A stretch of 64,000 nucleotides of DNA from an uncultured Verrucomicrobiales bacterium (GTDB taxonomy: Bacteria > Verrucomicrobiota > Verrucomicrobiia > Limisphaerales > JAYPXF01). Below are positions 12,416 to 30,644 of the stretch, piece by piece. Under the pieces are notes generated by a model. It was not told the origin of the DNA and ran no database searches. It worked only from the letters and a program-made list of their open reading frames with translations. Location of the stretch: NCBI GenBank assembly GCA_937893495.1, contig CALBIE010000391.1, forward strand, positions 1,363 through 65,362, given 5' to 3'. Both the position numbers and the translations under genes were made by a program. Each line of letters starts with the position of its first letter. Within the stretch, counting starts at the first letter, position 1.

Positions 12416-13165
12416 ATGTCGAAACCCTTCACACACATCTGTTTCGAATGCGCGAACGGCATTCCCTATGACAACGAAACCGCCGGGCGTGAAATAGGGT
12501 GTCCGTATTGCGGCAACCACATAAGGTTGGGCGAGTCGTCCGGTGCCGTCGCTGAAGAGGCCGAGGCCAGTCCATGGTCGCATTCGGACGAAGAGGACAT
12601 GAGCGATGATTCGCAGAGAAGGGGCGTGCGTGCGTTCGCAATTATTATAGCGATACTGTTGGTTGCAGGCGGTGGCTGGGCGAGCTGGTGGTTTGGGTTC
12701 CGCCAGGTGCCGGTCGAGCCCGGAATCAAGTTGGTTGAATCCACGGTTGAGTCGGGATCGGAGCAAAACAAATCTCCGCAGCCTGAATCTAAACCGCCGT
12801 CGGTTGCCACGGAGACGAACGCGCCGGCGACTACGAATGCACCGCCCCCGGTTGACTGGCGAACCTTCATCGGAACCTATCGCCGTAATCCTTCCGAGAA
12901 CAGTTCGCATACGGGAATAATCAGCTGGGTGGGACTGAGTGACAGCGGGAAGCCGATCCTGAAGTGGCGCAATCTCGCCGGAGCGGAATGGCCACTCTAC
13001 CCGACCCCCAAATCTTGGAAGGTTCGTACAGGAAAAGGAAACCCTCACCTGAATACGGCTCAAGGCAATCACTTCGTATTTCGCCCGGGCGAAGGAACGA
13101 ATCGAATCCCCGCCGGGTTTGAATTCAATCAGGGTTTCTTCATGCGCATCATCCTGGCGCGGTGA
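12416..13165 (+). CDS. mosaic-family protein: N-terminal zinc ribbon - acidic PW motif - single TM - C-terminal 'YRRNP' domain (module B)
   Basis: 249-aa ORF. CFEC...CPYC zinc ribbon, SPWSHSDEED, TM (VRAFAIIIAILLVAGGGWASWWFGF), C-terminal DWRTFIGTYRRNPSENSSHTG...KWRNLAGAEWPLYPTP...GFEFNQGFFMRI. The last segment is shared with the genes at 19156 and 22456. Confidence 0.85.
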   Translation: MSKPFTHICFECANGIPYDNETAGREIGCPYCGNHIRLGESSGAVAEEAEASPWSHSDEEDMSDDSQRRGVRAFAIIIAILLVAGGGWASWWFGFRQVPVEPGIKLVESTVESGSEQNKSPQPESKPPSVATETNAPATTNAPPPVDWRTFIGTYRRNPSENSSHTGIISWVGLSDSGKPILKWRNLAGAEWPLYPTPKSWKVRTGKGNPHLNTAQGNHFVFRPGEGTNRIPAGFEFNQGFFMRIILAR

Positions 13166-13476
13166 ACGGACGCTCGATGATGCGTGATTCTCACGGTGTG
13201 CCGACCCGGTACTCGTCGTCGGCCAGAATGGGCGACTGGAAATCCAGACTCATCGGTTGCGGCGATACTTGCCCAACGAATATCGATTCAGGCCAGTAGC
13301 GGATTTCGAGTCAGGCTCTGGGCATCAATGGGACACCCTTCAATTAATTGCACCACAGACACCCGGGCGAGCCACATTCCGGCGGACGGGCGCGGGAATC
13401 CGAACCGAGAATACCGGGCGCAGGTCTTCCGACATTCCGGACAACCGACCATTCTGGACGGAGCTGCGTTTTTTCA

Positions 13477-13503
13477 GAACGTGCTTCCAAAAATATTGTC
13501 TCA
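13477..13503 (+). promoter_or_regulatory. possible ECF-type promoter (GAACGT -35-like, 17-nt spacer, GTCTCA -10-like) upstream of the ECF sigma gene
   Basis: caGAACGTgcttccaaaaatattGTCTCAg lies about 40 nt upstream of ATG 13541. It resembles the generic ECF AAC...GTC/CGT layout. A second GAACGT (16504-16509) sits 33 nt upstream of the kinase gene at 16542. This is a pattern match only. Confidence 0.2.
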
Positions 13504-13540
13504 GAACGATACTCGCCGCTCAGGGAACTCTTCGATTGGA

Positions 13541-14281
13541 ATGAACGAACGAGACACCATCTCGCCGGGCCAACAAGCCTATTTTCAAACCACGCACTGG
13601 AGTGCTGTGCTGACGGCCGCTCGACCTTCCGAACCACGGGCATCGGCGGCGCTGGAGACGCTTTGTCGTAACTATTGGCTGCCGTTGTATCTCTACGTGC
13701 GCCGCAAGGGATTCAGCACCGAGGATGCTCAGGATTTGACCCAGGGATTTTTCGCCCATTTGCTCGGGACTGCCTGGTTGACCAAGGCTGATCGCGCCAA
13801 CGGCAAATTTCGATCATTCCTGTTGGTATCCCTGAACAATTTCCTGGCCAACGATTGGGATCATCGCAACGCAAAGAAGCGCGGCGGAGGCGCCAGCCAT
13901 CTGTCCATCGACGAGGAACTTGCTGAAAAACGCTTTCACAATGAACCCGCCTCCGGTGAAACGCCGGAGCATTTTTTTGATCGGCAATGGGCGGCGACCG
14001 TTCTGGAGCGCGCCATGACTCGACTTGCCGACGAAATGGCAGCATCCGGAAAGAAGCAGTACTTCGACAGACTTCGGGAGTTTATGGCCATCCGTGCGGC
14101 TCCTTCCGCCTACCACGAAATCGCCGGTGAACTCGACACAACACCAGCAGCGTTGGCGATGGCGGTCAGCCGGATGCGGAAGCGATATCGCGAGATAATC
14201 CGGTCGGAAGTGACCGATACCCTGGCTGAACCGGGCGACGCCGATCTTGAAATCAGGCATCTCCTGGAGGCGATTGCCTGA
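13541..14281 (+). CDS. ECF-type RNA polymerase sigma-70 factor (PVC-type, Ser/Thr-kinase-associated class)
   Basis: Met at 13541 chosen inside the 365-aa ORF. It reads MNERDTISPGQQAYFQTTHWSAVL...LCRNYWLPLYLYVRRKGFSTEDAQDLTQGFFAHLL (sigma region 2) and ...ELDTTPAALAMAVSRMRKRYREI (region 4 HTH). No adjacent classical anti-sigma gene; it is followed directly by an STK. Confidence 0.85.
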   Translation: MNERDTISPGQQAYFQTTHWSAVLTAARPSEPRASAALETLCRNYWLPLYLYVRRKGFSTEDAQDLTQGFFAHLLGTAWLTKADRANGKFRSFLLVSLNNFLANDWDHRNAKKRGGGASHLSIDEELAEKRFHNEPASGETPEHFFDRQWAATVLERAMTRLADEMAASGKKQYFDRLREFMAIRAAPSAYHEIAGELDTTPAALAMAVSRMRKRYREIIRSEVTDTLAEPGDADLEIRHLLEAIA

Positions 14282-14351
14282 CAGCAAGGTTTGGCTGTCG
14301 CTGAAACTTTGTTTTGTTCGTTAGAATGGGCCGGGAATTCTTTAGGAATGG

Positions 14352-15980
14352 GTGGAAGAAAACGTGTATCAACAATTCGTTTCGACGAACAGCCAATCAT
14401 TTTTCATGGGAACCGGGAACGTACCTGCAAAGCTTTGTCGAGAGTGTGGAGGGCCGATTCCCTCTCAGTCTGCTCTCGGCGATGTTTGCCCGGCCTGCCT
14501 GGCCGGCTCGTTGATGGGCGATCCAACCGAGTTGCCAGGTGGCGGTTCAGCGTGCAAATCCGCTCCGATATTCAGGCCTGGAATGGAGCAGGAAAGACTG
14601 ATCGGAAAGCGGTTCGGCAAGTACGAGATCATTGAGGAAATCGGACGCGGTGGAATGGGGGTCGTTTATCGCGCCCGGGAGGAGGAATTGAATCGCGACG
14701 TGGCGCTCAAGGTTTTCCCTTTGTCGGCCATGGACAATGCGGAAAGGCTGAATCGGTTTCAGAACGAGGCGCGTGCATTGGCGCGCGTTCGCCATCCGAA
14801 TATCGTGGGCATTCACGAAACGGGAGTGCTGGACAGTCACCGTTTCATCGCCATGGATTTCATCGCGGGCCACGATCTCGCGCGGCGTATTCGTGGGGGC
14901 CTTCCCTCCATCGAACAAAGCGCGCGCTGGATGAAGAGCATCGCCTCGGCGACGGCGACTCTGCATGAACACGGCATTATTCATCGCGATCTGAAACCCT
15001 CCAACGTCCTGATGGATATCGATGGGAAACCTGTGCTGACCGACTTCGGCATCGCCAAGATTGTCAGCGACGACTCCAGCCTGACGATGACGGGAAGCGT
15101 CTTCGGCACTCCCGCCTACATGTCGCCCGAACAGGCGATGGAAAGCCGCGACGTCGATGAGGCCTCCGATGTGTACAGCCTTGGCGCCATTCTATACGAA
15201 CTCCTGACCGGTCGGCCGCCGTTCAAGGCCGACAGCACGGTGGATCTCCTGCTCCTGGTCACCGACGCGGAACCGATTCCTCCCCGGAAACTCAACCCGG
15301 ATGTCCCGATGGCGCTGCAGCAGATCTGCCTGCGTTGTCTGGAGAAGAAACCCGCCCGGCGATATCCATCGGCCGCAGCGCTTGCATCCGATCTCGAGGC
15401 CTACCTGTTGGGAGATGCCCCCGATACGCTCACCACGCACTGGATCGACGGATTCCAACGCCGAACCCGCCGACAGCCCGGTCTCATCATCCGCTGCGTT
15501 GTGTTGACCGTCGTCGCCGGTGTTCTCCAACTGAAACAGGTTGCGGCTCCAGATCTCGCGACTCCGGCAATTCACTATTCGGTGTTGAGTATCATCGCCA
15601 TCTGGATCGCGTCCGCTTTTTTCTTCCAGCGACTGGCCACGGAAAAGCGATTTGCAGCCCAGGCCCGCCGCTGGTGGGGTGCCGCGGACGCCATCCTGTT
15701 CACCAACATTCTCGTTGTCGGCGAGCAGGCTTCCGGACCGGAGCTGATTGGATATCCGCTGCTGATTGCGGCCATTGGGCTCACCTTTGATACGGAAGCC
15801 GTAATCATCACGGGTGCGTCGAGCGTTCTTGCCTACCTGTATTACCTGTCATTCCAGGACTTGGAGCGTTCCACCGTCCACCTCCATCTTGTCTTTTTGA
15901 TTGGACTGATGGCACTGACCTTTTGCATCCATTTTCAAATCCGTCGTGTTCGAGCATTGAGCCGATACTACGAGAATTAA
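14352..15980 (+). CDS. Ser/Thr protein kinase with N-terminal Cys4 zinc-ribbon-like motif and C-terminal polytopic membrane domain
   Basis: 542-aa ORF (GTG start; alternative ATG at 14406). CRECGGPI...CPAC motif. Kinase motifs GRGGMGVVYRA, ALKV, HRDLKPSNVLM, DFGIAK, GTPAYMSPE. About 5-6 hydrophobic helices after residue 370. Confidence 0.9.
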   Translation: MEENVYQQFVSTNSQSFFMGTGNVPAKLCRECGGPIPSQSALGDVCPACLAGSLMGDPTELPGGGSACKSAPIFRPGMEQERLIGKRFGKYEIIEEIGRGGMGVVYRAREEELNRDVALKVFPLSAMDNAERLNRFQNEARALARVRHPNIVGIHETGVLDSHRFIAMDFIAGHDLARRIRGGLPSIEQSARWMKSIASATATLHEHGIIHRDLKPSNVLMDIDGKPVLTDFGIAKIVSDDSSLTMTGSVFGTPAYMSPEQAMESRDVDEASDVYSLGAILYELLTGRPPFKADSTVDLLLLVTDAEPIPPRKLNPDVPMALQQICLRCLEKKPARRYPSAAALASDLEAYLLGDAPDTLTTHWIDGFQRRTRRQPGLIIRCVVLTVVAGVLQLKQVAAPDLATPAIHYSVLSIIAIWIASAFFFQRLATEKRFAAQARRWWGAADAILFTNILVVGEQASGPELIGYPLLIAAIGLTFDTEAVIITGASSVLAYLYYLSFQDLERSTVHLHLVFLIGLMALTFCIHFQIRRVRALSRYYEN

Positions 15981-16035: not shown

Positions 16036-16479
16036 ATGGACACTTTGTTGAACTTCCTTTCCCTGGTTTGGCCCTACCTGTTGGTGGGGGCGATACTCGC
16101 CCTTGTTGTGTCCGCCCGCCGCTCGATGGCGAGGCGCGGGCAGGATTTCCGGACGTTTGCCCGACGGGTTGTCACCTTCGATAATATCGGTGTGGCGCTT
16201 TTCGTCTGGGCGGCGGCAAGCGTGGTTCTCTGTGCGTCCTTGCAGAGCGTTTTGTCGAGCCAATCTGAGGCCCTGTTATTTATCTATGCTGACTTGATCC
16301 CAAGCCCCTTGTTTTTGATCCTGAATGGGATCGCATTGAAGCGAAACCTTTCCGGCCCAAAGGCGACCGGAAGCCATTGGAGCGTGAGGGTGATGCTGAT
16401 TCTTGGTTTTTTGTTTTGGGGCCTCGTGTTTTTGTTCTTCCTCGCAACGGGGTTTAGGCCAGGCATGCTTTTGATGTGA
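16036..16479 (+). CDS. small polytopic membrane protein
   Basis: ORF 16024..16479 (TTG); ATG at 16036 preferred. Four hydrophobic segments (LLNFLSLVWPYLLVGAILALVV, IGVALFVWAAASVVLCASL, LIPSPLFLILNGIAL, VMLILGFLFWGLVFLFFLA). Confidence 0.65.
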   Translation: MDTLLNFLSLVWPYLLVGAILALVVSARRSMARRGQDFRTFARRVVTFDNIGVALFVWAAASVVLCASLQSVLSSQSEALLFIYADLIPSPLFLILNGIALKRNLSGPKATGSHWSVRVMLILGFLFWGLVFLFFLATGFRPGMLLM

Positions 16480-16541: not shown

Positions 16542-19112
16542 ATGTCTGACGCAAAAGCATGCCCCCAGTGCGGGAGTGAAATGAGTCCGTCCGAACTCGA
16601 CGGGCTTTGTATGGCCTGCGTGGCGAAGATGGGCTTCAGCGAGGCGGAGATTGGAATCGATCCCCGGCCCGATGATGGTCCGGTGAAATCCGAGGTGCCC
16701 CGGAAAATCCGCTACTTTGGTGATTACGAAATTCGCAGTGAGGTTGCCAGGGGAGGGATGGGAGTTGTCTATCGTGCGCGGCAGATGACGCTGAACCGGG
16801 ATGTCGCGCTCAAAATGGTAATGGGTGGCGTTCTGGCATCTGAAACGGAGGTCCAACGTTTCCGCACCGAGGCGGAAGCGGCTGCCCGGCTCGATCATCC
16901 CAATATCGTGGCCATCTACGAATTCGGTGAGCATGAGGGTTGCCAATACTTCACGATGAAGTTCATCGAAGGCGGCAGCCTGGCTCAACGGATCGGGGAA
17001 TACACCGGCCATCAGCGCGCCGCTGCCGTGCTGATGGCCAAGGTTGCGAGGGCGATTCACTATGCTCACCAACACGGCGTGCTCCATCGTGATGTCAAGC
17101 CGGCCAACATCCTGCTCGACGAATACGGGGACCCGCACGTGACCGATTTCGGGCTGGCAAAGATCGTCGAGGACGAACGCAATCTGACCCTGAGCGGCGC
17201 CGTGATGGGGTCGCCGGCCTACATGGCGCCGGAACAGGCGGAAGGCAGCAGCAAACGGATCAGTGCCGGCACCGATGTCTATGGCCTCGGGGCAGTTCTT
17301 TACCACCTGCTGACTGGTTCCCCACCTTTCAAAGGGAAATCAGCGATGCAGGTGGTTGCCAAAGTGATTGATTCCGCACCGGCCTTGCCGTCCTCATTGA
17401 TGCCGAAATTGGATGAACAGCTCGAATCCATCTGTCTTCGCTGTCTGGAGAAGAATCCTGCGAGCCGGTATTCATCCGCGGCGGGACTGGCCGATGATCT
17501 GGAGCGATGGCTGCAAGGTGAACATCGGGAATCCTCGCGCGCGCCGTTCGCAGCTCGGTTGCGGAACAGGATTCGCCGAAATCCCGTCGTGGCCGGTTGC
17601 CTGGCTGTCGCGGTATTGGCTCTTGGGATGGTTGGATGGAAGTATCTTCCAACCGGCGGCTGGCTTGGGAAACGCGGGGAAATCTTAAAAGCCGGGGGCA
17701 TGGCTCCATCGAAACAAGTGAGTCCGTTTGTGGGAACGAACGCTCAACTTCGAGCCAGATGGACCAACAGCCTCGGAATGGTCTTTGTGCCTGTGCCGGG
17801 AACGGAAGTGCAGTTCTGCATCTGGGAGACCCGGTTTCAGGATCACGGAACGTTTGCGAAGCAGACGAGCCGGGCGGTGAAATTGCCTTCGCTCGAAGGC
17901 CCGACGTACCCGGCAGTGAATGTGTCGTGGGGCGAAGCAAAGGAATTTTGTCAATGGCTGACCGAGAAGGAACAAAAGGCCGGATTGCTCGCGAGCGATC
18001 AATTGTATCGGCTACCTACGGATGAAGAATGGAGCCGGGCGGTGGGCTTGACGAGTGAAAGCGGGTCAACGCCGGTGATGCGAATGGCCGCAGGAATCAA
18101 AGGTGTCTATCCCTGGGGAACGGGGTGGCCGCCGCCTCGGGGCGCAGGGAATTACGCGGAGAGTCTGAACATGGATGATTTCGAGCGCACCGCTCCCGTG
18201 GGCTCCTTTGATGGGAACGCTTACGGAATTCATGACCTGAGCGGCAATGTATGGGAGTGGTGCGAAGACAGTCCCGGCGACAGCGGTCGCAACCGCCGTG
18301 TGCTGCGCGGTGGATCCTGGAACTGCGACCGTCCCGCCGATCTGTTGTCCTCCGGCCGCTTCATCAAGGAGGTGCCGTCGACGCCCTACGATCACATTGG
18401 GTTTCGAGTTGTGCTGGCAATCTTTGATTCGGAACTCGAAAGAAACCTCCGTCGGACGTCTCAGTCGGCCGTGGAGGACGGAAGCGTCCGGGCAATCGTC
18501 CCCGGCGGTCTGGCATCGTGCCGGCAGTTGCTGAAGAAACAGGGCGGTGACGAAAACAAGTTGTACGTCCACGGCGGAATACTTTGTTACGACGAAATCG
18601 ACGGACTTAATCTCGATCCGTTGAAGGGGGTTCCCTTGAATTCGCTCCACTTTGTCGGATCCCCGACAGCTGATCTGAAACCAGTGGTGGGGATGCCGTT
18701 GTATAATCTCAATCTGCATTCCAGTCCGAATCTCACCGATTTGTCCCCAATCCGCGCGTTGCAATTGCGAAAGCTCACGCTTGATGGGTGTACGAGTATT
18801 CGTGATTTTTCCGTGCTGTCAGAATTGAATCTTGAGTCGCTTGACCTGAAGGGGACCGCCATTGCTGATATTTCAATCGTCATAGGAAAGAACCTGAAGT
18901 ACCTCCGGCTTGAGGAATGTCGCCAGATCAAAAGTCTGCTGCCGCTGAAAGGACACAACTCGATCGAGACATTGATCGTTCCGATGAACGCGCCCGACAT
19001 GGAAGCATTACGAGGTCTGCCAAAGCTCAAGATGATTGGTTTCACTGAAGAAGGCTTGAAGGCGCCCAAGGATTTCTGGGCGGAATACGATTCGAAGAAA
19101 AAAGACCGTTAG
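16542..19112 (+). CDS. Ser/Thr protein kinase - TM - FGE/SUMF1-type (formylglycine-generating-enzyme-like) domain - LRR-like module 1
   Basis: 856-aa ORF. CPQCG...CMAC N-terminus. Kinase motifs (ARGGMGVVYRA, ALKMV, HRDVKPANILL, DFGLAK, GSPAYMAPE). TM (VVAGCLAVAVLALGMVGW). SUMF1 motifs (NSLGMVFVPVPG, VSWGEAKEFCQWLT, YRLPTDEEW, GNVWEWCED, RVLRGGSW, GFRVVL). C-terminal LRR-like repeats ending FWAEYDSKKKDR, paralogous to the tail of the 23754 gene. Confidence 0.9.
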   Translation: MSDAKACPQCGSEMSPSELDGLCMACVAKMGFSEAEIGIDPRPDDGPVKSEVPRKIRYFGDYEIRSEVARGGMGVVYRARQMTLNRDVALKMVMGGVLASETEVQRFRTEAEAAARLDHPNIVAIYEFGEHEGCQYFTMKFIEGGSLAQRIGEYTGHQRAAAVLMAKVARAIHYAHQHGVLHRDVKPANILLDEYGDPHVTDFGLAKIVEDERNLTLSGAVMGSPAYMAPEQAEGSSKRISAGTDVYGLGAVLYHLLTGSPPFKGKSAMQVVAKVIDSAPALPSSLMPKLDEQLESICLRCLEKNPASRYSSAAGLADDLERWLQGEHRESSRAPFAARLRNRIRRNPVVAGCLAVAVLALGMVGWKYLPTGGWLGKRGEILKAGGMAPSKQVSPFVGTNAQLRARWTNSLGMVFVPVPGTEVQFCIWETRFQDHGTFAKQTSRAVKLPSLEGPTYPAVNVSWGEAKEFCQWLTEKEQKAGLLASDQLYRLPTDEEWSRAVGLTSESGSTPVMRMAAGIKGVYPWGTGWPPPRGAGNYAESLNMDDFERTAPVGSFDGNAYGIHDLSGNVWEWCEDSPGDSGRNRRVLRGGSWNCDRPADLLSSGRFIKEVPSTPYDHIGFRVVLAIFDSELERNLRRTSQSAVEDGSVRAIVPGGLASCRQLLKKQGGDENKLYVHGGILCYDEIDGLNLDPLKGVPLNSLHFVGSPTADLKPVVGMPLYNLNLHSSPNLTDLSPIRALQLRKLTLDGCTSIRDFSVLSELNLESLDLKGTAIADISIVIGKNLKYLRLEECRQIKSLLPLKGHNSIETLIVPMNAPDMEALRGLPKLKMIGFTEEGLKAPKDFWAEYDSKKKDR

Positions 19113-19120
19113 AATACCGG

Positions 19121-19155
19121 CTGAATGCTTTTGTAGTAGGGGAACAACGAAGAAC
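19121..19155 (+). promoter_or_regulatory. conserved leader module (CTGAATGCTTTTG + purine-rich RBS region) preceding an ATGGCCAAAC start
   Basis: ctgaatgcttttgtagtaggggaacaacgaagaacATGGCCAAACC. Nearly the same string precedes ATG 22456, a shorter version precedes ATG 26560, and TGAATGC alone precedes ATG 23754. Confidence 0.35.
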
Positions 19156-22100
19156 ATGGCCAAACCACAGTCCAAAAACTTTTTCACCATGAGGCAAACA
19201 TATTGCGCCACCGAGCGGGTCGATAACCACCGCAATGCTCCAATCGTTCGAATCACGCTCGCAGTGACTGTGTTCATGACCGCCTGCACTGCGGAACCAC
19301 TTCCGCCCGCCAGGAGCAAGCAACTCTGTTACTCGATCGTACAGGATATTGATCGCGCCATGCGCGAATGGGCCCGGCGCTCGAAACCGAAGATTGGTCA
19401 GAAAATTGATTTGGAAGTACTGGCGCCCTTTCGCAGGCGAGGTCTGCCGGTAGTCTGTCCGATTGGAGGGGAAATCACCGTGAGTGAATATGGCGATCTT
19501 CCGGTCTGTAGCCTGCCGGAACATCAGCACAGACCATGGCGCAGCCTGCCGCCACAAATCGCCATCAAGCATCGTATCGGTGAATTGGAATCGAAAGACA
19601 GCAAACAGATTCTCCGGGCATTCAACCAGATCGAGCGCTCCGCCTATGCGAACACCAACGGGGCGGTCTTGTTACCGCACATGCTTGATGCGCTCGACGC
19701 AATGGCGCCAACCATCGAGGACGTGGAACGATACATCGTCAAATACCCGCGGGAAATCATGGGTTCGATGAATCCGGTTAACACAATGACGAAGTTTTCA
19801 AGTAACTCTGTTCCCATTCTGCTCTCTGCTGTGACGACTCGTACTCGTTCCAATCTGACGCGCCGTGTTTGCTTCGAGGCGTTGACCAGAATGAAGTTCC
19901 CCGGCCACAAGGATGTCATAATTGCCGGCTTAACCAACGACGTGCCGCTGGTCAACGTATTGGCGATGCAAACCTTGAGGCGTCACCCGGATTACGTTGA
20001 AGCGGCCGGGGATTTGGTTTCGAACAGCATGAAGCAGGTTTTACACAAACTGCATCCGGATGATGTGCAATGGGCGATCATCCCATTCGGCTATTTGAAG
20101 CTCGAAGTCGGGCAATTCGTTCCGGATTTGGGCAGGATTATTTTTGCCGAACCGGATCCGTCCGTTGAAACCAAGAATCAGACGCGCATTTCCTCCGGCG
20201 CGAGTCTTTTCGCCCGGGCCAAGCCGGACGCCAAACGTGCAATTGGTGCGATGGCAGCACAGTATTTTCGATCGAACTCAGCTCATCAACGCAGGGCTGC
20301 CGCAAGCGTCTTAAGGATTATCGGCGGCGAGGCAAAGGAATGGCGCAACCTTCTCGTTTCGGGCGTCGACGACGACGACGAGCAGGTGCGTCTCAATTCC
20401 TTTCAGGCGCTCAGGAACCTCGACGAGGAACCGGACACTTGGCTGGCATTGAATCAACGGAAGCTGGCCGACAACAGTCATTCGATCCGAAGACTCGCTT
20501 CGCAACATCTTGCGCAGATCGTCGTCACGGATTCCCAGCGGATACTGCCAATTGTTCTGAAACTCCTCTCGGACACCAACCACCTGGTGCGCATTGGAGC
20601 CTTGGAAACCCTTGGAATGATGCGTCCGCCCGCTGGCAGTGCCCTCCCGTCAGTGGCAAGTGCGTTGAACGACAAGCACCCGCTCGTCCGGTCCTCAGCA
20701 GTTGCAACCTTGGGGAAGTACGGTGATGCCGCCCGCACCAGTATTCCGGAACTTCTGTCCCGGTTCAAAGCCCCGGATGAAACGGCCAAGGCAACCTTCC
20801 TGACAGCGCTCGGTCAAATAGACCCTGAGAATGCTTCTGTCATCGAAGCCGGCATGGCTGGTCTGGAATCTGACAGCAAAGCCACTGTGATCGCAGCGGC
20901 AGGCGTTCTGAGCCGCACGAAGGCCTATCTTGCCCCTCACGTTGATCGACTTTTGCACCTGATGAAGGACCGGCAGAAGCGCACTGACGGCAAGATTCCA
21001 TACCTGCTCCAAAAAGTGGGGCCGGAGGCACTGCCGAAACTGATCTCGGCGCATCAGCAAGGCCCGGAGAACCTGAGTTGGGTTGTCATCAATGTCGTTG
21101 GTTCGCTTCGTGGGCATGATGTGGAAGTCCCACCAGAAGTGGCAAATCAACTCGCGCCGTTGTTCACAGAATGGTTTGAGTTCAATACCAAAGTGGCTGT
21201 TTTTCCTCCGGATGCAGTCAGACCGCGCATTGCTGCGGCTTTTCCGGCATTGGGTAGGATTGCGGCGTCTGAGATGGCGTATCTTCTGAGCATTCAAAAA
21301 TCCAAATCGGGAGCCAGTGCCTTCTCTAATCGATACGACCAGGATCTCCTCCGGAGAGCATTCAAGAAACTGACCGAAAAGTATCCTGATGTTAAGCTGG
21401 TGGATCTTGCGGCGAAAACAAGAGTTCCGGTTGAATGGAAAAAGTTTCTCGGCACGTATCGGCGCAATCCGTATGAGAACACCTGGCACGAAGGTGTTCT
21501 CAGTTGGGTCGGGATGAATGCAAAAGGATTGCCCGTGCTGAAATGGCGCAATATGGCCGGCATAGAATGGGAGCTTCTGCCTGAGCCGAATTCATGGAGA
21601 ATGAAAACCGGCACGGGAAATCCGTACCAGTCGAAAGGCTATCCCGCTGCCCTGGAATTCCGGTTCCGACCACAAACCGATCAAAATCGGCCACCGCACG
21701 GATTCCAGTTCAACCAGGATTATTTTGTACGAATTGATCCTATGGTCATGCGTTTCTTGGGGCTGTTGGGGAAGACTGCAGGGCGACCAACCAACACGCA
21801 ACCGCAACCGAAGAAAGCTCCCCCGTCTCCCAGTCCATCAAAGGAGCAGTTGGAACGAATCTGTTTTCAGAGTCTCAATTCCATCGACCGTGCAATCGTG
21901 AAATGGGCGACAAGCAACAAGATCAAACCTGAATCGCCGATCGACCGGCGTGCGCTGCTCTCCCACCTCTCTCGCTCCCTCATGCCCAAGTGCCCGTCGG
22001 GTGGCGCCTATGAAACCACCGTGGCAGGCGAAGTGCCGACCTGTTCTGTTCACGGCAGTTCCACACCGAACCGAAAGCGTTCGCCCATCAAATTATTGGA

Positions 22101-22350
22101 CATGTGTATCGCCAACATGAAACAGATTGACGGTGCCACGCAGCAGTGGGCTTTGGAAAACAAGAAACTTTCGGGCTCTGCGGTTGATCGGAAGCAAATG
22201 CTATTCTATCTCAAGAACGGACAAATGCCGGTTTGTCCCTCTTCCGGTACGTATGTCCTTGCAAACATCAATGCCAGTCCATCGTGTTCGGTTCATGGGA
22301 GCCTGGGCACGGCAATGAAGGTCTCCAAACAACAGGGGAATCTTCCATAG
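19156..22350 (+). CDS. mosaic-family protein: MAKP start - pilin-like Cys module - HEAT repeats - module B - two more Cys modules
   Basis: 1064-aa ORF. It starts MAKPQSKNFF and has a hydrophobic/lipoprotein-like segment (ITLAVTVFMTAC). HEAT-like repeats (EQVRLNSFQALRNL, HLVRIGALETLGMM, HPLVRSSAVATLGKYGD). Module B (EWKKFLGTYRRNPYENTWHEG...GFQFNQDYFVRI). Three copies of the C..(N)..(Q)ID.A...WA...K...CP.GG.Y......P.CS.(H)G module. Confidence 0.9.
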   Translation: MAKPQSKNFFTMRQTYCATERVDNHRNAPIVRITLAVTVFMTACTAEPLPPARSKQLCYSIVQDIDRAMREWARRSKPKIGQKIDLEVLAPFRRRGLPVVCPIGGEITVSEYGDLPVCSLPEHQHRPWRSLPPQIAIKHRIGELESKDSKQILRAFNQIERSAYANTNGAVLLPHMLDALDAMAPTIEDVERYIVKYPREIMGSMNPVNTMTKFSSNSVPILLSAVTTRTRSNLTRRVCFEALTRMKFPGHKDVIIAGLTNDVPLVNVLAMQTLRRHPDYVEAAGDLVSNSMKQVLHKLHPDDVQWAIIPFGYLKLEVGQFVPDLGRIIFAEPDPSVETKNQTRISSGASLFARAKPDAKRAIGAMAAQYFRSNSAHQRRAAASVLRIIGGEAKEWRNLLVSGVDDDDEQVRLNSFQALRNLDEEPDTWLALNQRKLADNSHSIRRLASQHLAQIVVTDSQRILPIVLKLLSDTNHLVRIGALETLGMMRPPAGSALPSVASALNDKHPLVRSSAVATLGKYGDAARTSIPELLSRFKAPDETAKATFLTALGQIDPENASVIEAGMAGLESDSKATVIAAAGVLSRTKAYLAPHVDRLLHLMKDRQKRTDGKIPYLLQKVGPEALPKLISAHQQGPENLSWVVINVVGSLRGHDVEVPPEVANQLAPLFTEWFEFNTKVAVFPPDAVRPRIAAAFPALGRIAASEMAYLLSIQKSKSGASAFSNRYDQDLLRRAFKKLTEKYPDVKLVDLAAKTRVPVEWKKFLGTYRRNPYENTWHEGVLSWVGMNAKGLPVLKWRNMAGIEWELLPEPNSWRMKTGTGNPYQSKGYPAALEFRFRPQTDQNRPPHGFQFNQDYFVRIDPMVMRFLGLLGKTAGRPTNTQPQPKKAPPSPSPSKEQLERICFQSLNSIDRAIVKWATSNKIKPESPIDRRALLSHLSRSLMPKCPSGGAYETTVAGEVPTCSVHGSSTPNRKRSPIKLLDMCIANMKQIDGATQQWALENKKLSGSAVDRKQMLFYLKNGQMPVCPSSGTYVLANINASPSCSVHGSLGTAMKVSKQQGNLP

Positions 22351-22421: not shown

Positions 22422-22455
22422 CTGAATGCTTTTGTTGAAAAGGAACAGCAAAGCC
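22422..22455 (+). promoter_or_regulatory. conserved leader module (second copy)
   Basis: ctgaatgcttttgttgaaaaggaacagcaaagccATGGCCAAACA aligns along its whole length with 19121-19165. Confidence 0.35.
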
Positions 22456-23592
22456 ATGGCCAAACAGTTGAAACATTCCTGCCACCATTGTGGGAACGTC
22501 ATTCCCCACGACGATGACGTGGTGGGGAACGAAGTGACTTGTCCCCACTGTGCGAACACCACCGTTCTGGGAAATGACTATTCGGGCCATATGGGGAACG
22601 CAAATTCCAATCCATGGGATGAAGATCCGTGGGAAAAGCAGATGGAAGAAGTCGCGAAAGAAGAAACCCAAGATCGCGAGCAACTGGTGGTCAGGAAGTG
22701 GAGCGACAGCGTGGTTGGCACGGTGTGGGGCGGGGTTTGTTTCCTGCCGATCATTGTTCTTCTGCTTTGGGGATTCGCGAGTGAGGAATATGGCCACACG
22801 CTCAAGGAATTCAGCGAGAAAGTCGTTCCCCCGGGCACCAATGGCCTTCCGGGCATCATCGGGTTCCTGTTTATTCTGCTCCCCACGGTGGTGGTGGGGA
22901 CTGTGCGTATCGTTCTGGCCCTCTGCTACAATCCATTTACCTATCTGATTTTTTGCAGTTGCCTGGGATTCGGCGCGTTGGCCGGTTGGTTCGTTGCAAC
23001 CGTTTGGAATCCTCGGGTTGAGCTTCTGCGTGGGTTCGCCACGGTATTGCTCGGCTTCACGCTTTCGTTCGGGTTCGTCCAAATGGTACTGGCCGAAAAG
23101 TGGAGGAACTTCAGCGCGAGCAAGATATCCGGACAGAGGAACCTCAAGGTACCTCAAAAGCCGGCTCCGAACGAATTGCCAAAGTCGACTCCCGGCGCGC
23201 CACCCGGTGTGCCCACCAAGGTCGCCCCGCAGAAGAAGCAGGCTGCAAAACCAGCGACCGCCATCGATTGGCGTGTCTTTATCGGAACGTACCGTCGCAA
23301 TCCCTACGAAAACACGTGGCATGTGGGAACCATCACCTATGTCGGCATGAGCGGCAGTGGAAAACCGATGCTGAAATGGCGAAATCAGGCAGGCATGGAA
23401 TGGCCACTCTATCCCACACCGGATACATGGAATGTTCGCACCGGCAAGGGAAATCCTTATCTGAACACGGACCAGGGCAATCATTTCGAATTCCGCCCGG
23501 GCCAGCATTCCAACAGCCCACCGGTTGGGTTTCAGTTCAACCAGGATTTTTTTCAACGACTCGTCGTGCCCGCCCAGGGGGGAGCGAGATAG
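22456..23592 (+). CDS. mosaic-family protein: zinc ribbon - NPWDED motif - about 4 TM - module B
   Basis: Met at 22456 (MAKQLKHSCHHCGNVIPHDDDVVGNEVTCPHC) preferred over the ORF-track start at 22426. NPWDEDPW motif, four hydrophobic helices, C-terminal DWRVFIGTYRRNPYENTWHVG...KWRNQAGMEWPLYPTP...GFQFNQDFFQRL. Confidence 0.9.
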   Translation: MAKQLKHSCHHCGNVIPHDDDVVGNEVTCPHCANTTVLGNDYSGHMGNANSNPWDEDPWEKQMEEVAKEETQDREQLVVRKWSDSVVGTVWGGVCFLPIIVLLLWGFASEEYGHTLKEFSEKVVPPGTNGLPGIIGFLFILLPTVVVGTVRIVLALCYNPFTYLIFCSCLGFGALAGWFVATVWNPRVELLRGFATVLLGFTLSFGFVQMVLAEKWRNFSASKISGQRNLKVPQKPAPNELPKSTPGAPPGVPTKVAPQKKQAAKPATAIDWRVFIGTYRRNPYENTWHVGTITYVGMSGSGKPMLKWRNQAGMEWPLYPTPDTWNVRTGKGNPYLNTDQGNHFEFRPGQHSNSPPVGFQFNQDFFQRLVVPAQGGAR

Positions 23593-26519: not shown

Positions 26520-26528
26520 AGCCGACCG

Positions 26529-26559
26529 TCAATGCTTTTGAAGGTTGGAAAGGTGAAAT
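26529..26559 (+). promoter_or_regulatory. conserved leader module (third, diverged copy)
   Basis: tcaatgcttttgaaggttggaaaggtgaaatATGGCAAAGCC starts 9 nt after the stop of the LRR1-ending gene. The layout matches that at 19112/19121. Confidence 0.3.
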
Positions 26560-27993
26560 ATGGCAAAGCCGGTTACACACATTTGTCACGGGTGCGGGAA
26601 TGGCATTCCGCACGATGCTGAAGCAACAGGTAAGACTGTTTCGTGTCCGTATTGTGCAGTAGCGACCGAACTGGGAAAAATCTACCCGACATCTGAAATG
26701 TCCCGTGCGAATCCATGGGACGAGAGCGAGGAAGCCTCCCCGGAACAAACAGCTGAGATAACGGCACAAGGTTACCAATCCCCCCCTCCCCTTCCAAGGA
26801 AAGATGCCGATTCCACCGCTGACGTCGGCGAATCTGAGCAATCAATTCGTGGCCGCTCGGTGCGCAAGCGCGAACAGCCCGTAAAGGCTAACACTGAAGG
26901 AGGATCCTTGTTATTTCTTAGAGGATTCTTGTTAACGCTTTTGGGCATGGCTGCTGGGTTCGCTCTGGGTTTTAACTACCAAGATTCGATAAGCCCTGCT
27001 GTTACTAATCCGAGCACCGGGGAGCTGAACCCCGTCTTAATGGCCTTCAACGTGTTTGTGGGGTGTTGCGGAGCGGCTATCGGAGGAGTCATTGGGATTT
27101 TGTCACACTTGGTTTTGAAAGAATTTACAAAGCAGGATAAGGCGGGAGGCGGTATTGCCATCAGCCTATCCGAGATAATCGTCATTGCCGTCATGATCGC
27201 GGGCGTAATCTTTTCCACGCAGTTCGAATTCAAGGGACGTAGCGGCGCCAATCCGGTCAAGGTGGCAAAACTCGAACACGTCGTTTCAACGAATGAGACC
27301 AAGCCGAACAAGCCGGTGGTATCTCAAACGAATACCGACCCGACCAATCCGGAACTGGTCAGGTGGCAAAACAAAATGACCAAAGAAGGTCTCGAGAAGG
27401 TGAACCAGCTGCCAATTCCAATTCAATTGGCCTTGAAGGGGCGGGCCACCAAGGATGGGCAGGGAAACATTTCGATGAGTTTCCGGGAGTCCAAGATCGA
27501 CGACCTTTCAGGGATCAATGCCCTGCCCGTGACCGAACTCGATTTGGACTTGACCGGCATCCGGAACCTGAAGCCCTTGGAGGGCCTAAAGCTCCGGGTC
27601 CTGAAGCTTTACAATACCAGGGTGACCGACCTTCGCCCACTTTCGGACATGCCCTTGAATGTCCTGTTCATTAACAGCCCCGTCGCCGACCTGGAACCGC
27701 TGCGCGGAATGCCCTTGACAAACATGGCGGTCGTTTCGTCTGCAGTTGTGGATATCAGACCGTTGGCAGGAATGAAATTGAACAAGCTGTGGATTGCGAG
27801 CGATCGACTTGTGAGTCTTGCCTCCTTGAAGGGACAGCCGATCGAGAATCTCGAACTGGGTTGCCCGTCGATTTCGGATCTGTCGCCTCTGCTGGAATGC
27901 AGGCAGCTAAAGCGGTTGACGATTCACCCCAACCTGAACAAACGCGCCGGGATCCTCCTCCGTCATCCGTCATTGACCAACATTGTGAATTAG
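26560..27993 (+). CDS. mosaic-family protein: zinc ribbon - NPWDE - S/T-rich juxtamembrane motif - 3 TM - LRR-like module 2
   Basis: 477-aa ORF. MAKPVTHICHGCGNGIPHDAEATGKTVSCPYC; NPWDESEE; PRKDADSTADVGESEQSIRGRSV; three hydrophobic helices. C-terminal LRR-like repeats ending HPSLTNIVN, paralogous to the tail of the 28074 gene. Confidence 0.9.
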   Translation: MAKPVTHICHGCGNGIPHDAEATGKTVSCPYCAVATELGKIYPTSEMSRANPWDESEEASPEQTAEITAQGYQSPPPLPRKDADSTADVGESEQSIRGRSVRKREQPVKANTEGGSLLFLRGFLLTLLGMAAGFALGFNYQDSISPAVTNPSTGELNPVLMAFNVFVGCCGAAIGGVIGILSHLVLKEFTKQDKAGGGIAISLSEIIVIAVMIAGVIFSTQFEFKGRSGANPVKVAKLEHVVSTNETKPNKPVVSQTNTDPTNPELVRWQNKMTKEGLEKVNQLPIPIQLALKGRATKDGQGNISMSFRESKIDDLSGINALPVTELDLDLTGIRNLKPLEGLKLRVLKLYNTRVTDLRPLSDMPLNVLFINSPVADLEPLRGMPLTNMAVVSSAVVDIRPLAGMKLNKLWIASDRLVSLASLKGQPIENLELGCPSISDLSPLLECRQLKRLTIHPNLNKRAGILLRHPSLTNIVN

Positions 27994-28073
27994 TAAGCAC
28001 ACGGACGATTGGGAAAAGGCCCCATACGTCGAAAAGTTCCAGACAAAGTATCACTCTCAACATCATCGACCGA

Positions 28074-30644
28074 ATGATTAAGTTGCTACCTCTACTTGGC
28101 CTCGTTTTCTATATCGTGGCGGTTTCCCGTGCAGTCCCTTGTGCAAAAGAACGAGGTCTCAAGCCTCTCCACATCTGGCTGGCCGCCATCCCGCTATGGT
28201 TTTTCAATCAGGTAATTGCGGGTCCGCTGATCTTGGTTCCAATCCTAAGACTTCTAGGACCCCTTGCAGGTCTGTTCTATCACTCGCAGTTTTGGCAGGG
28301 GCTATTGGTTTTCTTGCTGATCCGGATCTTTCGCCGCCCTCGGAAAGAGGCCGATTCCAGCACTGACGTCGGCGAATCTGAGCAGTCAGTTCGTGGCCGC
28401 TCGGTATTCGTTCAGATGTCGAGAGGCGTCTTGTTGGGCGGGGCCGCTGGAGTAGTGGTGATATTGATCGCCGTCTCGCAGATGTTCGGTGCTGATGCGG
28501 GCGGGTTTATGATTGTCTTCGGAGGACCCCTGCTCGTGTTGGCAATCATCGGCGCTTCAGCGTACTTGGCAATCGGACGGTTCACGAACGGAAGCAGACG
28601 GTCTCGTCGCCCGGCGACCGGGTTGCGATGGATCGCCGCACTGTTGCTGGTATTTGGAATCGCCTACGCCGCGTCGCTATTCAATCGGCCCAGAGCGAAT
28701 CTGCCCAAACCCGTGGCCAGTGCAAACGCCGAACGAAGCCAGTGCCTGAAACATCTCAAAGAAATCGTGCTTGCCTTCAAGATATTCGCGGAGAAAAACG
28801 ATGGTCGGTTCCCCTTTGAATTCGAAGGCCCACCGGGAACAAAACCGTTTGTCAAACGTGATTCCAACGGCGACGAAATCGATCCCTTCCGCCATTTCTT
28901 GACGCTGAGCAACCAACTCGGTTCAACCAGGCTACTCACCTGTCCCAGTGACAAATCACGGAAAATGGCGGCCGATTGGACCTCGTTCCGTTTGGCTAAC
29001 ATCACCTACAAACTCCGAACCGGTCCGCAGGTCAACGGGATGCAGAATAACCAGAACGTGCTGATGTGGTGCCCGATTCACTTTACCCGCGCCTATTGTG
29101 ACAGTTCGGTCGGGCTGGGAAATCAGAGGCAGTTACTTGAAGCCATCGAGGCCGGAAAGAAGGCAAGTGTCAAACCACGCCCGGTGGATCGATCGCCAAA
29201 CAAATCGAAGGCTCTCGCTTCCAATTCTCCGCCCTTCCAAGAGCGATCCGACAATCCCGCCACGCCGAATCGGGTCACAAAGCGAAAGGCGAGGGCGAAT
29301 CCCCGGCCTACTCCAGAGCCACTCTGGCAGGGGAAAATTCCGACCATTCCAGTCCAACAGTTTACCAACGCTTACGCTCCAACGAACGGTCTCGTCGCGT
29401 GGTATCCCTTCAACGGCAATGTGCAGGATGAGAGCGGGAACGAACGCCATGCAACCAATCGTGGCGCGCGGTTCGTGCCAGATCGTTTTGGCGTGTCCGA
29501 TGGGGCGCTGAGATTTGACGGGAAACAATTTGTTGATTGCGGGACCAACAGCGTTTTCGAGTTGGGTAAACAGGGCAGCCTGGGATGCTGGATGTTACCG
29601 TTTGAAAGAACCGGCCCCTTGGTCGGCAAGGATTCCCTAAAGTTTCACGACGACATCCAGTTGGGAGTCAATCCCCACAACAAGGCCCGCGGGAAAATCG
29701 CGATGGCAATGAGCCCGAAGGAGGGCGAGCAAATCCGCCTTGCAACGGGCCCGGAAATCACGCCGGGCAAGTGGTATCACGTGCTGGGCCAATGGGACAC
29801 CAACGGCTTTCGCCTGTTTGTCAATGGGAAGCAAGTCGCCGAAAATACCGGTGACTATCGGGTTCATGCCGCTGGACACCCGCTGCTCATTGGGCGCTTT
29901 CAGACCAGTGAATACTTCAAAGGAATCATCGACGATGTTGCCATCTATAATCGGGCGCTGAGCGGCAACGAAGTGGAATCGCTTCATCGCTATTCCGAGT
30001 TGGCCCACTGCCAGAGCAGGCTGGAAAAGCAAGGTCTCGATCAGGTGAATCAATTGCCGACAAAGCTGCAATTGGCATTGATGGGCCGGGTATCCAAGGA
30101 CGCAGGCGGGAATCTGTCCATGAGTTTCAAGGATTCGAAAATACGCGACCTCTCCGGCCTCAACGGACTGCCGTTGACACGCCTCAATCTGGATGGAACC
30201 GGTGTTGCCGACTTGACTCCGCTGACGGGGTTGCGACTTCGTGAACTCAAACTCTGGGGAACACAGGTGACCAATCTGCAGGCGCTTTCGAAGATGCCAA
30301 TCAATGTCCTTTTCGTCGCCAGTCCGGTTGTTGACCTGGAACCCCTTCGGCACTGCCCGTTGGAGAATTTGTGGATTCTTTCGAAGAACCTCGCGGACAT
30401 CAGCCCGTTGACGGGAATGGAGTTGAACAATTTGTGGATTGGGAGCGACCGACTGGAGGATATTTCCGCATTGAAGGGACAGCCGATCGAGATACTCCGG
30501 TTGGACGGGTGTCCGTCCATTGCGGACTTTTCGCCTTTACTGGAGTGCAAGCGGCTGAAGCGCCTGAAGATTCATCCGAAACTGACCAACCAAATCGAAT
30601 TCCTCCGCGCGCATCCGCCATTGACCGACATTGTCAACCAATAG
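28074..30644 (+). CDS. mosaic-family protein: polytopic TM with S/T-rich motif - pilin-like segment - LamG domain - LRR-like module 2
   Basis: Met at 28074 (MIKLLPLLGLVFYIVAV) chosen, because the ORF-track start at 27789 overlaps the preceding gene out of frame. PRKEADSSTDVGESEQSVRGRSV; SQCLKHLKEIVLAFKIFAEKNDGRFP (pseudopilin/DUF1559-like); LamG about three-quarters identical by eye to that of the 23754 gene; LRR-like tail ending HPPLTDIVNQ. Confidence 0.9.
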   Translation: MIKLLPLLGLVFYIVAVSRAVPCAKERGLKPLHIWLAAIPLWFFNQVIAGPLILVPILRLLGPLAGLFYHSQFWQGLLVFLLIRIFRRPRKEADSSTDVGESEQSVRGRSVFVQMSRGVLLGGAAGVVVILIAVSQMFGADAGGFMIVFGGPLLVLAIIGASAYLAIGRFTNGSRRSRRPATGLRWIAALLLVFGIAYAASLFNRPRANLPKPVASANAERSQCLKHLKEIVLAFKIFAEKNDGRFPFEFEGPPGTKPFVKRDSNGDEIDPFRHFLTLSNQLGSTRLLTCPSDKSRKMAADWTSFRLANITYKLRTGPQVNGMQNNQNVLMWCPIHFTRAYCDSSVGLGNQRQLLEAIEAGKKASVKPRPVDRSPNKSKALASNSPPFQERSDNPATPNRVTKRKARANPRPTPEPLWQGKIPTIPVQQFTNAYAPTNGLVAWYPFNGNVQDESGNERHATNRGARFVPDRFGVSDGALRFDGKQFVDCGTNSVFELGKQGSLGCWMLPFERTGPLVGKDSLKFHDDIQLGVNPHNKARGKIAMAMSPKEGEQIRLATGPEITPGKWYHVLGQWDTNGFRLFVNGKQVAENTGDYRVHAAGHPLLIGRFQTSEYFKGIIDDVAIYNRALSGNEVESLHRYSELAHCQSRLEKQGLDQVNQLPTKLQLALMGRVSKDAGGNLSMSFKDSKIRDLSGLNGLPLTRLNLDGTGVADLTPLTGLRLRELKLWGTQVTNLQALSKMPINVLFVASPVVDLEPLRHCPLENLWILSKNLADISPLTGMELNNLWIGSDRLEDISALKGQPIEILRLDGCPSIADFSPLLECKRLKRLKIHPKLTNQIEFLRAHPPLTDIVNQ

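Follow-up and report, generated by a model that had tools for sequence, protein, structure and literature searches.

We describe here a 65-residue N-terminal module, hereinafter the head, that is homologous in three genes of a 64,000-nucleotide stretch of DNA from an uncultured Verrucomicrobiales bacterium (contig CALBIE010000391.1, positions 1,363 to 65,362; hereinafter the window, in whose coordinates all positions are given). The three genes, g12416, g22456 and g26560, combine the head with transmembrane (TM) helices and variable bodies. We posit that the head serves as a docking handle in the cytoplasm, comparable to the zinc ribbons (ZnR) of ZitP and GltJ, that its partner is not specifically the neighboring extracytoplasmic function (ECF) sigma factor, Ser/Thr kinases or FHA domain, and that it is not an anti-sigma domain. 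With some reservation, we hold this to be the likely reading.

A preliminary description of this DNA had reported that the three genes open with nearly the same Cys4 ribbon followed by an acidic Trp motif; the translations of the window's open reading frames (ORFs) match the N-termini quoted there exactly. Over 65 aligned columns the heads share 42–44% identity, and a hidden Markov model (HMM) built from them recovers each copy at E-values of about 1e-34 to 1e-37 in the window's own assembly (8 Mb in 900 contigs, 88% complete; hereinafter the genome). The next-best match of the HMM lies at about 3e-7 in a scripted search of the genome and at 5e-8 in a separate one, and this gap marks the three heads as homologues rather than chance resemblances. 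Their cysteines follow the pattern C9-x2-C12-x16-C29-x2-C32, and M1, K3, H7, C9, C12, N14, I16, G24, C29, C32, L38, G39, P52 and W53 are invariant in eight heads drawn from six distinct clusters. None of the invariant positions in these eight heads is a Thr, and no head has a Trp within residues 1–40. In all three window genes a Pro-Trp flanked by acidic residues lies 19–21 residues past C32, the motif of g12416 having diverged to SPWSH. The order of elements is the same throughout, with the Cys4 ribbon leading into the acidic Pro-Trp linker and then into one (g12416), four (g22456) or three (g26560) TM helices; the heads are strongly acidic, with net charges of −5 to −11. For g22456 the ORF list places the ATG at 22426, within a conserved upstream DNA element; since all homologues begin M-[AS]-K, position 22456 is the better start.

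The genome itself has no FtsZ, and it carries PSCyt1, PSCyt2, PSD1 and DUF1501 genes along with sulfatases and 40 kinase ORFs, a gene content suggestive of Planctomycetota. Within it, the full head is confined to the three window genes. An iterated profile retrieves about 23 further ORFs with a looser ribbon core (C-x2-C-x16-18-CP-x-C), which is N-terminal every time. Their bodies, read by eye rather than scanned, resemble two MoxR-type AAA ATPases, one MotA/ExbB-like protein, PQQ and WD40 propellers, one LamG protein and others; the ribbon-bearing ATPases show that the ribbon is a promiscuous cytoplasmic cap in this genome. Such MoxR-like ATPases, again identified by eye, are encoded on contig C861 (about 13292–14446, minus strand) and contig C177 (10764–12041, plus strand). 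The full head is absent from 40 relatives, in which only positions about 4–44 are matched (E-values of 1e-9 to 1e-3). A scan of the GTDB species representatives with the head alignment likewise found no full-head relative, and a word-based homologue search with residues 1–65 of g26560 returned two 95%-identical orthologues only. Against 1.84 billion representative proteins, HMMER gives 304 matches at E≤1e-3, and outside the window clusters the whole head is seen in four clusters only (P0008, P0009, P0010 and P0011), all four of which retain NPW[AD][DEQ] followed by TM helices. A more distant set of N-terminal ribbons (MS.DLKH.CHECGG...) is devoid of the PW motif. The top 45 library matches comprise 18 single ribbons, N-terminal in 18/18 cases, and 27 tandem arrays; apart from the full heads and the distant set, most matches are tandem arrays of 2–18 ribbons. 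To judge by these searches, the full head represents a narrow and rare subfamily within a ribbon family that is very common. The preliminary description had held that a head found everywhere without association with ECF or Ser/Thr kinase genes would speak against its docking proposal: the ribbon core is indeed ubiquitous without such a link, but the full head is rare.

The head module is uncatalogued by Pfam and NCBIfam. No model of either library covers it, and scans at E≤10 yield only sub-threshold matches to generic zinc ribbons, such as RNA polymerase (RNAP) subunit P, LysW, TackOD1, TMEM55 and Brz; at E≤0.01 the entire g12416 protein has no Pfam match. Among PDB sequences the best match, archaeal RNAP subunit P/Rpo12 (E 0.009), was set aside as generic ribbon similarity rather than functional evidence. 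In an AlphaFold2 (AF2) model, residues 1–40 are predicted at a local confidence (pLDDT) of 76–85 as four strands (residues 5–8, 15–18, 26–28 and 35–37) and a short helix (20–22), giving a β-β-(α)-β-β layout; the linker with the PW motif falls to a pLDDT of about 40–55 and is probably disordered. A low-confidence full-length AF2 model of g22456 (mean pLDDT 57.5) reproduces the ribbon and the disordered linker and has the four helices. The models indicate the fold class, a two-hairpin zinc ribbon, rather than a specific relative within it. The top match of a Foldseek search against the PDB is the ZitP ZnR (2nb9; probability 0.91, root-mean-square deviation 1.6 Å over 37 columns), followed by archaeal ribosomal and RNAP ribbons, LysW and TMEM55B, none of them significant. 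The four invariant cysteines would bind one zinc ion. The TM helices were mapped by a hydropathy scan together with the AF2 helices, and the head most likely lies in the cytoplasm, because the same ribbon type is found on MoxR-like ATPases and in TM-less tandem arrays and because K/R residues precede TM1 in g12416, g22456 and g26560.

The head as a putative docking handle

Two experimentally studied proteins offer precedents for the potential role of the head. ZitP from Caulobacter crescentus has an N-terminal ZnR (zinc_ribbon_5, PF13719; PDB 2nb9), a TM helix and a periplasmic DUF3426 domain, and its ZnR binds the polar scaffold PopZ (PMC5182065, PMC5182063); the ZnR is a portable module of 43 residues (PMC5182065). 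GltJ (AgmX) from Myxococcus xanthus is a membrane protein in which a 95-residue linker joins a ZnR to a GYF domain; a motif in its linker binds MglA-GTP, and its ZnR binds the linker and then MglB, constituting a switch (PMC11135422). An adjacent ZnR is present in about 44% of bacterial GYF-domain proteins, lying N-terminal to the GYF domain mainly in myxobacteria and planctomycetes, and the authors of the GltJ study suggest that such ZnR-GYF modules have variable ligands (PMC11135422).

The head shares with ZitP an N-terminal Cys4 ribbon of about 40 residues, in the head probably cytoplasmic and predicted as β-β-α-β-β, and a ribbon that is portable and separable from its body, with the ZitP structure as its top fold match. 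The wider architecture of the head genes is also that of ZitP, with a flexible linker, one or more TM helices and then a non-cytoplasmic domain. It differs in that ZitP has a ribbon Trp (W35) without equivalent in the head, the invariant Trp of which sits in the linker, and in its bodies, which are leucine-rich repeats (LRR) or a domain that we term module B rather than DUF3426. With GltJ it shares the succession of a ZnR and a disordered linker with a conserved peptide motif (P52 and W53 with acidic flanks) on a membrane-associated, receptor-like protein, which suggests a ribbon/linker switch as a working model; however, the linker motif of the head, NPW plus acidic residues, is unrelated to that of GltJ. 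The C-terminal domain of PopZ (PF10691, DUF2497) is absent from the 88%-complete genome, a search for which Caulobacter served as the positive control, and none of the three head proteins has a GYF or GYF_2 domain at E≤0.01; hence, any partner of the head must be distinct from the proteins that ZitP and GltJ bind. A further analogue is LysW (PF21344; PDB 3wwl, 5eio), which recurs among the near-matches of the head in both fold and sequence. It too is a small Cys4 ribbon with an acidic flexible tail and illustrates how an acidic arm can dock onto partner surfaces. Yet LysW, with about 54 residues, is soluble, belongs to lysine/arginine biosynthesis and is covalently loaded at its tail end, whereas the tail of the head continues into TM helices and has no biosynthetic context; its matches to the heads are all below threshold (E 0.09 and 0.69, 10–13 bits against a cut-off of 27).

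In the mechanism that we propose, the head would be a lineage-restricted module of two parts, namely a Cys4 ribbon of about 40 residues, of the same fold class as the cytoplasmic N-terminal ZnRs of ZitP and GltJ, and a disordered acidic linker with an invariant Pro-Trp. The linker would present NPW and its acidic neighbors as a short linear motif and run into the first membrane helix. In the cytoplasm, the ribbon surface (K3, H7, N14, L38 and G39) and the PW-acidic peptide might each bind a partner or might bind each other; in a GltJ-like alternative, the ribbon would instead be occupied by the linker of the same protein, which a partner would displace. In both cases, the head may couple variable membrane and outer domains to something inside the cell. 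The preliminary description had seen a conserved cytoplasmic head on variable bodies as a docking module. The bodies do vary (one, three or four TM helices; module B or LRR), and with the ZitP and GltJ precedents this part of its proposal is plausible; the partners that it named are considered below. A stronger version, in which the head acts as a GltJ-like intramolecular switch and the recombining outer domains (two LRR types and module B) report to one cytoplasmic hub, possibly the FHA-kinase-WD40/kinase/ECF-sigma block, strikes us as improbable. If true, it would amount to a system of modular receptor cassettes, with a constant signaling handle and ectodomains that move from gene to gene.

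Several observations weigh against a docking handle of the ZitP/GltJ kind. The docking role itself is proposed by analogy, and the match to 2nb9 is statistically weak (E 0.33). No head matches PF13719 or PF13717 (Zn_ribbon_4) above the gathering score: PF13717 aligns with the second head only, over residues 27–33 (E 0.21, 12 bits against a cut-off of 30.3), and PF13719 does not figure among the head matches at E≤10. The looser ribbons of the genome fall below the PF13717 cut-off as well, with sub-threshold matches of 15–23 bits in 7/10. The cysteine spacing of the head, x16, departs from that of ZitP and GltJ, whose cysteines are C5, C8, C28 and C31 (x19; PMC5182065, PMC11135422). The AF2 model of the head was built from a shallow alignment of 6 sequences. 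The head-less paralogue g27789, if functional, works without the module, and outside the genome the gene context of the head comes from four short contigs. The membrane topology also raises conflicts. P0011 has no K/R ahead of its TM helix and KQR past it, so that the positive-inside rule favors an outward N-terminus. Module B would face different sides of the membrane in g12416, with its single TM helix, and g22456, with its four. It would be outside in g12416 and in the HEAT-repeat protein g19156, which has a lipoprotein-like signal as read by eye, and inside in g22456, P0009 and their kin, where four TM helices are followed by a strongly basic flank past TM4. Consequently, either at least one of these topology inferences is wrong or module B works on both sides.

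N-terminal zinc ribbons cap many membrane and cytoplasmic proteins of planctomycetes and their relatives, and the known bacterial partners are those of ZitP and GltJ only. The subfamily offers a small test case for such handles, with a ribbon of 40 residues, a linker motif of two invariant residues (Pro-Trp), and natural body swaps and head loss; identification of its partner would help explain the role of these widespread handles in bacteria whose cell plans are unusual. By itself, the locus contributes an uncatalogued subfamily and a case of module shuffling still under way rather than a new kind of system.

Alternative roles and the neighboring signaling genes

The alternative that fares best is a head without a partner of its own. 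In that case, the ribbon would be a generic N-terminal cap, i.e., a fast-folding zinc knot that keeps the N-terminus cytoplasmic or stabilizes the protein, or else a redox- or zinc-sensitive switch, with the PW motif contacting the membrane interface or its own loops. The extreme promiscuity of the ribbon, which is found on ATPases, propellers and channels and in tandem arrays of up to 18 copies, is in keeping with such a role, as are the N-terminal zinc fingers of thioredoxin-2 among the fold matches and the frequency of acidic-flanked Trp residues at membrane interfaces. However, the invariant PW is placed 15–60 residues ahead of the first TM helix, in a variable linker, which suits a peptide ligand better than an interface anchor. 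Moreover, the surface positions K3, H7, N14, L38 and G39, none of them a Cys, are invariant across clusters less than 55% identical, suggesting a specific binding surface, and partners do exist for ZitP and GltJ, the examples that have been studied. We consider a generic cap unlikely, though deserving of more weight than the readings that follow.

The preliminary description had named as possible partners the ECF sigma factor (13541), the three Ser/Thr kinases and an FHA domain, which belongs to the gene at 8287. Under such a model, the variable outer domains would all feed one kinase/sigma pathway. The three head genes do share one co-directional block with these genes, g12416 ends 375 nt ahead of the sigma gene, and P0011, from another metagenome-assembled genome, comes after what is left of an FGE-sulfatase domain resembling that of the kinase gene g16542, at which point its contig ends. 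Nevertheless, neither the sigma loci of relatives, nor the looser ribbons, nor the head genes on other contigs bear this proposal out. The sigma factor (probable start 13541; no Pfam match at E≤0.01 and weak NCBIfam matches) belongs to a multi-copy family with 7 copies in the genome and up to 33 in one relative. We inspected 12 regions of relatives that hold 13 paralogous sigma genes, with flanks of about 2–8 kb per side: a Ser/Thr kinase lies on the same strand within 1.5 kb of 13/13, and within these flanks a ribbon or head gene accompanies 0/13. This fits the published observation that kinase-linked ECF groups are typically without anti-sigma factors (PMC7826278). In the genome itself, which has 40 kinase ORFs, 0/23 looser ribbon genes share a contig with a sigma gene and 1/23 shares one with a kinase, at a distance of 6 kb; as background, 3.7% and 2.1% of its genes lie within 5 kb of a kinase and a sigma gene, respectively. 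Among the other head genes, P0009 is flanked by a MYG1-like gene and hrpB, P0005 (on another contig) sits ahead of a gene for a BNR protein, and P0010 comes after genes for PQQ and WD40 proteins, with no sigma or kinase gene in any of these three contexts. Furthermore, the closeness of the three local copies to signaling genes is a single event rather than three, as the copies are tandem paralogues, and the lack of an invariant Thr makes the head unlike the phospho-Thr ligands of FHA domains. A partner among these neighbors is improbable in our estimate.

A narrower proposal takes g12416 for a zinc-dependent membrane anti-sigma factor of the adjacent sigma factor, with the ribbon sequestering the sigma and module B sensing a periplasmic signal. 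A cytoplasmic zinc domain at the N-terminus of a membrane protein, one TM helix, an outer domain and an adjoining ECF sigma gene do make for a classical likeness to the ZAS type (zf-HC2; RsrA, ChrR), and His7 ahead of the first Cys pair yields H-x-C-x2-C. The ZAS motif, though, is H-x3-C-x2-C in a helical domain, in contrast to the predicted β ribbon with four Cys of the head, and no match to zf-HC2 (PF13490) or any other anti-sigma family is obtained even at E≤10. Only g12416 is sigma-adjacent: the same head is borne by g22456 and g26560 far from any sigma gene, and the absence of such a gene from the inspected flanks (about 2–8 kb) of the 13 paralogous sigma loci, which have kinases instead, indicates that co-occurrence with a cognate sigma is not kept. 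An anti-sigma identity was rejected on fold, motif and missing co-occurrence, leaving this a very remote prospect; scanning for promoters and terminators near g12416 and the sigma gene yielded nothing informative.

Least credible of all is a head that is translocated without a signal peptide as an acidic N-tail and acts outside the cytoplasm with its Cys in disulfides; the net charge and the K/R placement of P0011 would suit it, but the ribbon-bearing cytoplasmic MoxR-like ATPases and TM-less arrays and the K/R clusters ahead of TM1 in the three window genes speak against it, as does the usual occurrence of Cys4 zinc sites in the reducing environment of the cytoplasm.

One further candidate concerns the PW motif. 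Eukaryotic DPW and NPF motifs bind adaptor proteins, and the HEAT protein g19156 has a weak match to Adaptin_N (E 0.0013). The notion that NPW/DPW is an adaptin-type ligand of this protein is disfavored because the lipoprotein-like signal of g19156, read by eye, would put its HEAT repeats outside the cytoplasm.

Duplication and module shuffling in the block

The head genes belong to a block of about 22 kb (8287–30644) that is a mosaic of paralogous modules. Module B, of about 100 residues, is common to g12416, g22456 and g19156; LRR tail 1 is common to g16542 and g23754, LRR tail 2 to g26560 and g27789, and a LamG domain to g23754 and g27789. Heads, TM blocks, module B, LamG and the two LRR tail types have been recombined in this block by duplication and swapping. 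One trace is a stretch of collinear DNA, 18960–19185 against 26367–26589, which runs from the last part of LRR tail 1 through its stop codon and the spacer into the next gene, as far as the fourth codon (ATG-GCN-AAR-CC). The duplication unit thereby spans a gene boundary, which explains the orphan MAKP of g19156: as the preliminary description had noticed, this gene keeps only the MAKP start and diverges thereafter, and the DNA alignment identifies the start as a true relic. Its observation that g23754 opens with a different Cys4 ribbon also stands, since that ribbon (C9, C12, C29, C32) has no sequence similarity to the head.

An upstream element of the TGAATGCTTTTG type sits about 20–35 nt ahead of g19156, g22456 and g26560. 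The 8-Mb genome holds three exact copies of TGAATGCTTTTG, two of them in the window, where a third local copy has one mismatch. So low a number rules it out as a genome-wide regulon motif and, with the collinearity, indicates that the element was inherited with the duplication unit. A copy of the core of the shared element, ATGCTTTTG, is also present some 90 nt ahead of the kinase gene g16542 (about 16440–16460), and the element that contains it could be a shared promoter or leader of the block.

Further evidence for exchange comes from a sister strain (L015:3-2103). One of its genes encodes the head and three TM helices, matches g26560 at 95% identity as far as about residue 236 and continues from there into LRR tail 1; the preceding gene terminates in an LRR tail 2 that shares 87% identity with that of g26560. 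Relative to the window (23754–27993), the sister strain has the two LRR tail types exchanged. Head loss is seen in g27789, which retains 23 residues of the linker, including DVGESEQS(I/V)RGRSV, behind a hydrophobic N-terminal block in place of the ribbon. By these comparisons, the three head copies arose through local duplication and module shuffling that is still ongoing. The g27789 ORF (27789–30644) shares about 200 nt with the 3' end of g26560; its translation probably begins near 28074 (MIKLLP...).

Table 1. Coordinates of the heads, their motifs and associated features in the window.
Feature	Position	Strand	Basis or remark
g12416, 249 aa: head, one TM helix (about residues 72–94), C-terminal module B (145–249)	12416..13165	+	
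Predicted zinc ribbon of g12416, residues 1–40; C9, C12, C29, C32	12416..12535	+	alignment
Acidic Trp motif SPWSHSDEED of g12416, residues 52–61 (S52–D61)	12569..12598	+	P and W invariant
g22456, 378 aa: head, four TM helices, Pro-rich linker, module B	22456..23592	+	
Predicted zinc ribbon of g22456, residues 1–40	22456..22575	+	AF2, pLDDT 76–85
Acidic Trp motif NPWDEDPW of g22456, residues 52–59 (N52–W59)	22609..22632	+	low-confidence, probably disordered linker (pLDDT about 40–50)
g26560, 477 aa: head, acidic/Pro linker, three TM helices, type 2 LRR tail	26560..27993	+	
Predicted zinc ribbon of g26560, residues 1–40	26560..26679	+	alignment
Acidic Trp motif NPWDESEE of g26560, residues 51–58 (N51–E58)	26710..26733	+	alignment
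MAKP start of HEAT-repeat gene g19156, relic of a head-bearing duplication unit	19156..19167	+	DNA collinearity
Upstream element TGAATGCTTTTG, ending 22 nt ahead of the g19156 ATG	19122..19133	+	
Upstream element TGAATGCTTTTG ahead of g22456	22423..22434	+	
Upstream element with one mismatch, TCAATGCTTTTG, ahead of g26560	26529..26540	+	
Linker remnant in head-less g27789, ORF residues 184–206	28338..28406	+	83% identical to g26560 residues 79–101
Divergent ECF-type sigma factor, 3' of g12416	13541..14281	+	neighbor, not demonstrated partner
Ser/Thr kinase paired with the sigma factor	14352..15980	+	neighbor, not demonstrated partner

Cysteine-rich elements recur elsewhere in the block. Besides module B, the HEAT protein g19156 (19156–22350) carries three copies of a Cys module (residues about 55–125, 900–965 and 980–1050) with the pattern …(I/L)D.A…W…(K/N)K…CP.GG.Y…P.CS(V/L)(H/P)…. 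Two kinases have N-terminal Cys4 elements unrelated in sequence to the head, g14352 with C29-x2-C32-x13-C46-x2-C49 (CRECGG...GDVCPAC; 14436–14498) and g16542 with C7-x2-C10-x12-C23-x2-C26 (CPQCG...GLCMAC; 16560–16619). Altogether, some Cys4 element stands at the start of 6/10 proteins of the block.

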